DNA of 64,000 bases, taken from Octopus sinensis. Taxonomy: Eukaryota. Within the stretch, counting starts at the first letter, position 1. Each line of letters starts with the position of its first letter. A program made the position numbers and the translations under genes. Below the pieces are notes generated by a model. The model was not told where the DNA came from and ran no database searches. It saw only the letters and a list, made by a program, of their open reading frames with translations. Below are positions 722 to 63,654 of the stretch, in pieces. The DNA is taken from NCBI RefSeq assembly GCF_006345805.1, contig NC_043003.1, positions 71,238,001 to 71,302,000 on the forward strand, read 5' to 3'.

Positions 722-898
722 GGACGAAGACGCCCGAATCACTTCGCCGAAAACTAAAGTCTGCTATGAAGCAGGGAGATAAAGATACACTGGACAAAGT
801 AATTCACGAATGCATCGCTGCTGGAATGCCAGAATTAGACGTAGACATAAGCGTCGCTCGAGACGTATTGAAAGACGTTAAAATTTCACCTCCAACAG
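722..898 (+). CDS. Repeat exon type A (unit 1)
   Basis: cag|GG...CAG|gtacat, 177 nt; [59 protein letters not shown]. Confidence 0.9.

Positions 899-63654: not shown

Follow-up and report, generated by a model that had tools for sequence, protein, structure and literature searches.

The window analysed here, a stretch of 64,000 nucleotides of Octopus sinensis contig NC_043003.1, carries a long series of similar short exons whose types recur in a regular order, and the question it raises is whether that order reflects how the array was made or what the encoded protein does. An AG..GT exon scan followed by protein and DNA profile searches detected 57 intact module exons, all on the plus strand, between positions 722 and 63654. 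All 57 are bounded by AG and GT, are in phase 1-1, have an open frame, measure 168–177 nt and encode a single module of 56–59 aa. One extra exon (about 48436–48576) is dead and stop-ridden, and the same scan and searches found no further module copy in the gaps between exons in the window. Independent small genes were ruled out as the exons have no start or stop and are joined in gene models.

A search with a module profile found LOC106876157 and LOC128248363 of Octopus bimaculoides, and a cluster look-up returned XP_036360723.1 (O. sinensis, 6,596 aa), XP_052825467.1 (O. bimaculoides, 5,242 aa) and CAI9725887.1 (Octopus vulgaris, 2,069 aa). The O. sinensis gene is LOC115214248, annotated as uncharacterized; its identity as a KY/hillarin-like giant protein had been overlooked by an earlier sequence-only reading of this DNA. 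Of the 45 distinct modules in the window, 34 are letter-identical in XP_036360723.1, a model of 94 modules that lacks 23 of the 57 window exons. If these 23 are added to the 6,596-aa model, the full protein would be about 7,900 aa, and the total number of modules, at least 94, is probably 117 or more. An orthologue above 80% was found for 33 of 45 modules; between the two Octopus species, such modules are 87–100% identical, with slot means of 94–97% and 98% for the head. Among 846 candidates (proteins of 3,627–11,543 aa), no annotated giant orthologue was found beyond the Octopus clusters. Within XP_036360723.1, GGRGG occurs 21 times at the ends of B and D modules, which we take to resemble an arginine-methylation (GAR/RGG) motif, and 48 of 86 modules open with SP or TP, possible kinase sites.

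The full-length chain is a prediction from gene models that disagree on exons, with 94, 87 and 16 modules in the models of the three species and discordant exon usage. One reading of this disagreement is that the array is a pool of splice cassettes for short or tissue-specific isoforms, with the A-B-C-D order rarely reaching protein. In its favour, every exon is symmetric (phase 1-1), GTTA opens 31 of the 57 donors and GTAA and GTGA only one each, and the 16-module O. vulgaris model jumps across blocks. GTTA-type donors may be weak and favour skipping. However, the O. sinensis model joins 33 exons consecutively from 16685 to 47528, O. bimaculoides models contain long runs with this order too, and the skips in the models can be assembly or annotation gaps. 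Of 24 sequencing runs, 20 contain some of 27200–33100, none of these being listed as RNA; in nine the share is 0.25–0.28, close to the exon fraction, which carries no weight as evidence on splicing. We regard a pure splice library as highly unlikely.

The sequence-only reading had described an alternation of exons of the GMPEL type (A and C; M) and the YPEL type (B and D; Y), nested in an A-B-C-D order that held across about 15 units. Both levels were borne out. The two types alternate at 53 of 56 neighbouring positions and, with all copies counted, 11 of 16 units are complete, three are without A and two without C and D. Statistics were calculated on 45 distinct exons, leaving out 12 that are copies 2–4 of a cassette block at the 5′ end, and these 45 run ABCD BCD ABCD ABCD ABCD ABCD ABCD BCD ABCD ABCD AB AB BCD.

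Units 1 to 4 make up the 5′ block and are described below. Unit 5 (10533–14911) is without A and consists of B 10533–10706, C 14247–14420 and D 14738–14911. It is followed by unit 6 (16685–19250; A 16685–16861, B 17388–17561, C 18611–18784, D 19077–19250), which is identical to XP_036360723.1, unit 7 (19859–21710; A 19859–20035, B 20465–20638, C 21102–21275, D 21537–21710), unit 8 (23046–28295; A 23046–23222, B 24312–24485, C 27256–27429, D 28122–28295), unit 9 (28578–31170; A 28578–28754, B 29989–30162, C 30492–30665, D 30997–31170) and unit 10 (31462–33061), in which A (31462–31635) is 174 nt long and is followed by B 31981–32154, C 32315–32488 and D 32888–33061. For C 32315, the donor chosen in the O. 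sinensis model lies 15 nt further downstream (32315–32503, five residues more), and the O. bimaculoides model has the 174-nt form. Unit 11 (34245–35663; B 34245–34418, C 34816–34989, D 35490–35663) is again without A, and this D-to-B junction (33061–34245) is also present in the O. bimaculoides model P0003. Units 12 (36177–38258; A 36177–36353, B 36818–36991, C 37371–37544, D 38085–38258) and 13 (38584–46590; A 38584–38760, B 39580–39753, C 41489–41662, D 46417–46590) are complete. Only A and B are found in unit 14 (46843–47528; A 46843–47013, 171 nt; B 47361–47528, 168 nt) and in unit 15 (52575–55306; A 52575–52748, absent from the RefSeq model; B 55133–55306). One of these two units keeps a C-like remnant, the dead exon with in-frame stops on the plus strand at 48436–48576 (nhmmer E 3e-6), for which the best tblastn matches are of class C (C30492 and C32315). 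Unit 16 (60803–63654; B 60803–60976, C 61609–61782, D 63481–63654) is without A and is absent from the O. sinensis model, and its C and D are 95–96% identical to LOC128248363. In the three gaps where an A would be expected, including 8837–10532, tblastn found no A remnant.

A maximum-likelihood tree of the 45 exons contained an A clade (n=10; 99/97), a C clade (n=11; 82/82) and a clade of B and D together (n=24; 99/96), in which B and D were mixed and unresolved. The expectation that exons cluster by slot and not by neighbour therefore held for A, C and B+D, but B and D are only weakly separable. Leave-one-out assignment to four classes was correct for 40 of 45 exons. A and C were distinguished in 21 of 21 cases, a result that is partly circular because the A and C labels were set by tails and the tree, but that holds when tail columns are removed; in 14247–32888 the labels equal array position. 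B and D, labelled by their neighbours only, were told apart in 19 of 24 cases (permutation p about 0.005) and in 15 of 23 held-out upstream modules of the gene model (binomial p about 0.1), and a max-statistic test found no diagnostic single column. As far as the sequences go, the hierarchy is strong for M versus Y and for A versus C, and weak for B versus D. Mean identity among the 22 exons in 14247–32888 was 0.37, 0.435 and 0.355 at lags 1, 2 and 3, and 0.50 at lags 4, 8 and 12.

Several of the class features that had been named earlier were confirmed in the distinct exons: A is 177 nt long in 7 of 10, carries the Gly of GD(K) at position 18 in 7 of 10 and has no Gly at positions 54–55 in 10 of 10, and the GGxG tail is found in 11 of 11 C exons. 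The GGGRG tail of B and D had been overstated, as it is exact in 11 of 24, with Arg at position 56 in 16 of 24. The best class marker had been missed. It is position 31, which is Glu in 24 of 24 B/D exons and Val, Ile or Leu in 21 of 21 A/C exons; Tyr35 is found in 21 of 24 B/D exons, but one C (61609) has it too. Positions 54, 55 and 57 separate A from C completely, class C swaps hydrophobic position 49 for 51, and A modules have a mean net charge of −3 where the others are about 0. The fixed residues at position 31, the swap in C and the charge of A would all be in keeping with a true functional super-repeat, in which the M-Y pair or the ABCD quad packs rigidly or binds a period-matched filament, like the titin C-zone or nebulin. 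The loss after 47528, which took C and D together, would also fit.

The origin of the period can be seen at the 5′ end, where four near-identical 2.24-kb ABCD cassettes with their introns form a tandem block on the plus strand (1–9433) in which copies are 98.2–99.7% identical, introns included. Unit 1 (722–2127) consists of A 722–898, B 1100–1273, C 1586–1759 and D 1954–2127. Unit 2 (2956–4361; A 2956–3132, B 3334–3507, C 3820–3993, D 4188–4361) and unit 3 (5198–6604; A 5198–5374, B 5576–5749, C 6062–6235, D 6431–6604) are protein-identical to it, and unit 4 (7433–8836; A 7433–7609, B 7811–7984, C 8297–8470, D 8663–8836) has 11 amino-acid changes in B. The window opens inside a further copy, of which the D-A intron is seen at 1–721 (99.2% identity to the D-A intron), and 8837–9433 is a partial copy in decay, 89% identical to the D-A intron. 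The four-exon cassette is thus the unit of duplication, and it is whole-cassette duplication that makes the period. For this block alone an assembly error could be the cause instead; as a general explanation, assembly artefact was rejected. The block continues past the left edge of the window, and recent expansion, copy-number polymorphism or an assembly artefact are all possible. None of its 16 exons is in the O. sinensis model, and an orthologue of A 722 is found in an O. bimaculoides model. In B 7811–7984 of the fourth cassette, 11 codons differ from the first cassette, all of them non-synonymous and none synonymous, and the A, C and D of the same cassette have 0, 2 and 1 differences. The excess in B may be due to local assembly error, decay or selection.

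The remaining duplications must be old, as fourfold sites of the older exons are near saturation in any slot (0.336, 0.341 and 0.333 across all slot pairs; expectation 0.307). Comparison of the introns outside the 5′ block revealed no slot-matched homology, only dispersed repeats. Two intronic families were seen, one at 11204–11562, 15594–15996 and 51267–51510 and a second at 19420–19620, 29270–29499, 45220–45409, 46055–46238 and 50460–50636; copies are 72–83% alike and are probably SINE-like elements. A broken reading frame at about 58230–58460, in the intron before B 60803, resembles what we take to be a LINE reverse transcriptase, and a 110-aa open frame on the minus strand (43510–43842) resembles the N-terminal part of Penelope-type retroelements.

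Upstream of the window, the modules of the gene model allow the two levels of the period to be followed further. Along the O. sinensis model, Glu and non-Glu alternate at position 31 at 81 of 85 neighbouring positions, a regularity that again would suit a functional super-repeat. Tails with and without Gly alternate at 19 of 23 upstream positions (p 0.003) where the four-period in the module cores is absent or slight: core identity at lag 4 versus lag 2 was 0.456 versus 0.475 in one half of the upstream region and 0.467 versus 0.446, slightly higher, in the other. From these sequences, the pair alternation spans the whole array and the upstream four-period survives mainly in the linkers.

The pattern could also be purely historical, the footprint of four-exon unequal crossover, with interchangeable slots and class differences that are frozen accidents under general purifying selection. 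Cassette duplication appears to have been caught in the act, the array tolerates irregular losses, one dead exon and B/D tails that have degenerated, and no inter-module geometry is predicted, all of which fit. This account has more difficulty with position 31, split 24/24 against 21/21, and with Gly54/55, present in 11 of 11 C and 0 of 10 A, given that no slot signal is left at synonymous sites and that modules of one slot are only 45–50% identical. Nor does it readily accommodate the upstream tails, which still alternate where the four-period of the cores has faded. History is retained longer at amino-acid than at synonymous sites, and the class signal alone is no proof of class-specific selection. 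We consider history by itself to be rather unlikely. Our reading is that the order was made by duplication and is kept by constraint on the pair classes and the hinge type, without obligatory packing.

Structure prediction bears on the packing. AlphaFold modelled a natural C-D-A record (192 aa, 12-row alignment) as nine helices, three per module, with a mean pLDDT of 82, and a second model gave the same module fold. The pTM of the C-D-A model was 0.36, with confidence minima at the Gly linkers; this is about what three independently placed domains would be expected to give, and, coming from a 12-row alignment in a model of the C-to-D and D-to-A joints, it is compatible with weak packing. Helix 3 is 23 residues long in A, continuing into the non-Gly tail, and 18 and 16 residues in C and D, the A tail being at the C-terminus of this one model. 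An ESM Atlas model of a 451-aa piece (7.7 modules, all four joints) had a pTM of 0.20, ESM Atlas matches for ABCD were leads under 0.9, and complex prediction without alignments for A and B modules as two chains scored 0.01, which weighs on neither side of the question of binding. Each module is predicted to be an independent three-helix bundle, with the tails of B, C and D acting as Gly hinges and that of A continuing helix 3. The inter-module packing or periodic binding partner that had been proposed for the super-repeat found no support, given the C-D-A model with its low-confidence linkers, the single-module losses that persist in two species and the fading of the four-period in upstream cores. 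The same low pTM values (0.36 and 0.20), the weak lag-4 signal in the upstream cores, the absence of A from 3 of 16 units, with one such junction common to two species, and the small difference between B and D all speak against a functional super-repeat, which we judge unlikely though worth keeping in mind.

The fold itself was not matched to a known family. No Foldseek match reached E 0.001, and the VIA fold search gave a best Z of 7.2, to generic helical bundles, and none at Z 8. A PDB sequence search with the module profile returned 16 matches with E values of up to 10, the best at 0.005; most of them are designed helical proteins. Pfam searches with eight single modules and five multi-module proteins found no family at cut-off and only sub-threshold matches. 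The spectrin repeat is also a three-helix repeat, of about 106 aa; the octopus module differs in being 56–59 aa long and in having no Pfam family that reaches cut-off.

The head and tail of the protein are known from protein records outside the window and are linked to the window through the gene models. Transglutaminase-like domain PF01841 was detected in P0159, P0158 and P0101 (25.8–27.3 bits, cut-off 23), and three stretches of the KY-type Ig-like domain PF23265 were found in the O. vulgaris model P0159 (E 2e-64). The O. sinensis head is nearly identical to the scanned heads (670 of 682 positions to P0158), record P0101 includes the head together with the first module, and UniRef and NCBI name the head fragments KY-like. 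A charged segment, probably a coiled-coil, follows the head. In the transglutaminase-like domain the 25 residues that precede the YESLF helix contain no Cys, and the position of the FAP246 His is taken by Asn, with Asp kept, which sets the octopus head apart from KY. The catalytic triad positions are our assumption, placed by motif and not by alignment to an active enzyme, and the domain is probably inactive. An N-terminal LIM domain is a feature of LTD-1 and hillarin and not of KY; a Pfam scan (E 0.01) found no LIM family in P0159, from which a 5′ exon could be missing.

The abalone protein XP_067666272.1 (983 aa) has the same type of head, six related helical repeats and a homologous tail. 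The abalone tail (P0149, residues 855–983) weakly resembles the dynein microtubule-binding domain (E 0.056–0.72, not significant). Its four PDB matches up to E 1, three axonemal dyneins and one AAA+ chain of 4,191 aa, have E values of 0.27–0.72 and all lie near residue 2,800. The tail of the O. sinensis model is faintly like the same dynein domain; the octopus-type tail is more degenerate, its folded model has a pLDDT under 50 and there was no usable ESM Atlas match for it. A cephalopod-type tail (P0155) could be aligned (E 1e-10, 21% identity) to the C-terminal region of the abalone protein. P0155 is probably a spliced transcript of a relative that joins M, Y and tail, as 408 aa on a contig of 1,293 bases leave no room for introns.

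Relatives of the repeat were also examined. Among 134 short matches, 100 were under 70% identity to any compared Octopus module and comprised 47 Y, 28 C and 25 A. The A, C and B/D classes therefore recur in more distant sequences on this classification, and the ratio near 2:1:1 is a further point for a functional super-repeat. Four of these records, apparently from one contig of 179,751 bases, suggest an array in another genome, and some of the matches under 70% may be unmodelled Octopus exons. Protist relatives matched the module profile at E 1e-10 to 5e-32, with repeats spaced mostly at 46–51 aa and almost no Gly runs, and the carriers were the myosin tails of Rhodelphis and of a cluster with a Breviolum member, a Polykrikos protein and an EF-hand protein. 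The repeat forms long arrays in records P0021, P0118, P0079, P0141 and P0010 and is in no Pfam family; it is a candidate new repeat family. With so few Gly runs it is probably a continuous rod, in contrast to the 58-aa octopus module with its hinge, and the likeness between them may be due to common ancestry or to convergence of amphipathic helices.

The head, a transglutaminase-like domain with three Ig-like_KY domains, is like that of KY, hillarin, LTD-1 and Cyk3. According to PMC6078408, KY is found at the Z-disc and belongs to a network that includes filamin C; it keeps the putative catalytic residues, and no enzymatic substrate was found for it. Other sources list KY among PF01841 proteins (PMC10318531), place leech hillarin at the axon hillock (PMC3081291) and describe Drosophila hillarin as concentrated at the cleavage furrow and interacting genetically with a septin, C. 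elegans Ltd-1 as localised like actin and the inactive domain of yeast Cyk3 as binding Rho1 (PMC3718969). Unlike these relatives, the octopus protein has at least 94 one-exon modules, Gly hinges and a nested two- and four-module period, and its 6,600–7,900 aa compare with the 983 aa of the abalone KY-like protein. The literature search found no paper on this gene or repeat, and no stand-alone dynein-type microtubule-binding domain on KY-family proteins, in sources other than subscription journals and supplements. The main text of an octopus mucus proteome names 'kyphoscoliosis peptidase' once, without an accession, and its supplements may name the protein (PMC11431876).

The sequence-only reading had compared the array to titin and nebulin. 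In titin the linkers are formed by the C-terminal part of each domain, are copied along with it and recur at regular intervals, and the A-band reflects tandem duplication, with linkers that come back periodically and domain interfaces that are little conserved (PMC10665226). The octopus array is like the titin A-band and nebulin in having position-specific classes from tandem-level duplication and slot-specific periodic linkers, and unlike them in its three-helix bundle (not Ig/Fn3 or a nebulin motif), in having one exon per module and in its frequent losses of single modules. The comparison holds for the origin, by cassette duplication with slot-specific linkers, and does not imply packing; it is best treated as analogy, not homology.

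The explanation that we favour, and hold to be somewhat probable but well short of secure, is that the window covers a section of the repeat array of a single giant Octopus protein of the KY/hillarin/LTD-1 type that serves as a beads-on-a-string cytoskeletal tether or spacer. Nested duplication would have led from one exon to an M-Y pair and then to the four-exon cassette, and the period would be kept by constraints that are specific to each class and act on linker type and a few positions in the helices. The chain would be beads on a string with about one stiffer joint in four, functioning as an intracellular extensible tether or spacer. Its anchor would be the head, probably inactive as an enzyme, at the actin/septin cortex or at muscle dense bodies, a site proposed because relatives are anchored there, with tissue and partner borrowed from them. 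Symmetric exons would allow length to vary by splicing or copy number. A bolder proposal, which we consider distinctly unlikely, is that cephalopods have evolved a fourth type of giant modular protein for muscle or axon, with a KY head, a filament-matched helical super-repeat, a dynein-derived microtubule-binding tip and pairwise splicing. If true, the protein would be near 0.9 MDa and some hundreds of nm long and, without kinship to titin or nebulin, would serve obliquely striated muscle as a ruler or spring.

The annotation still lists the gene as uncharacterized, no Pfam family covers its repeat, and all of its models are either incomplete or discordant. On the sequence evidence it encodes an undescribed giant protein of the KY-like kind, in which a helical repeat so far uncatalogued recurs with a nested period; it belongs to the known KY family, whose vertebrate member gives rise to myopathy when it is lost. 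As each module is a single exon, cassette duplication is ongoing and losses are shared between species, the array is a clean, naturally occurring case in which duplication history can be told apart from selection in super-repeats, and its product is a candidate for a giant elastic or spacing element in the muscle or nerve of cephalopods.
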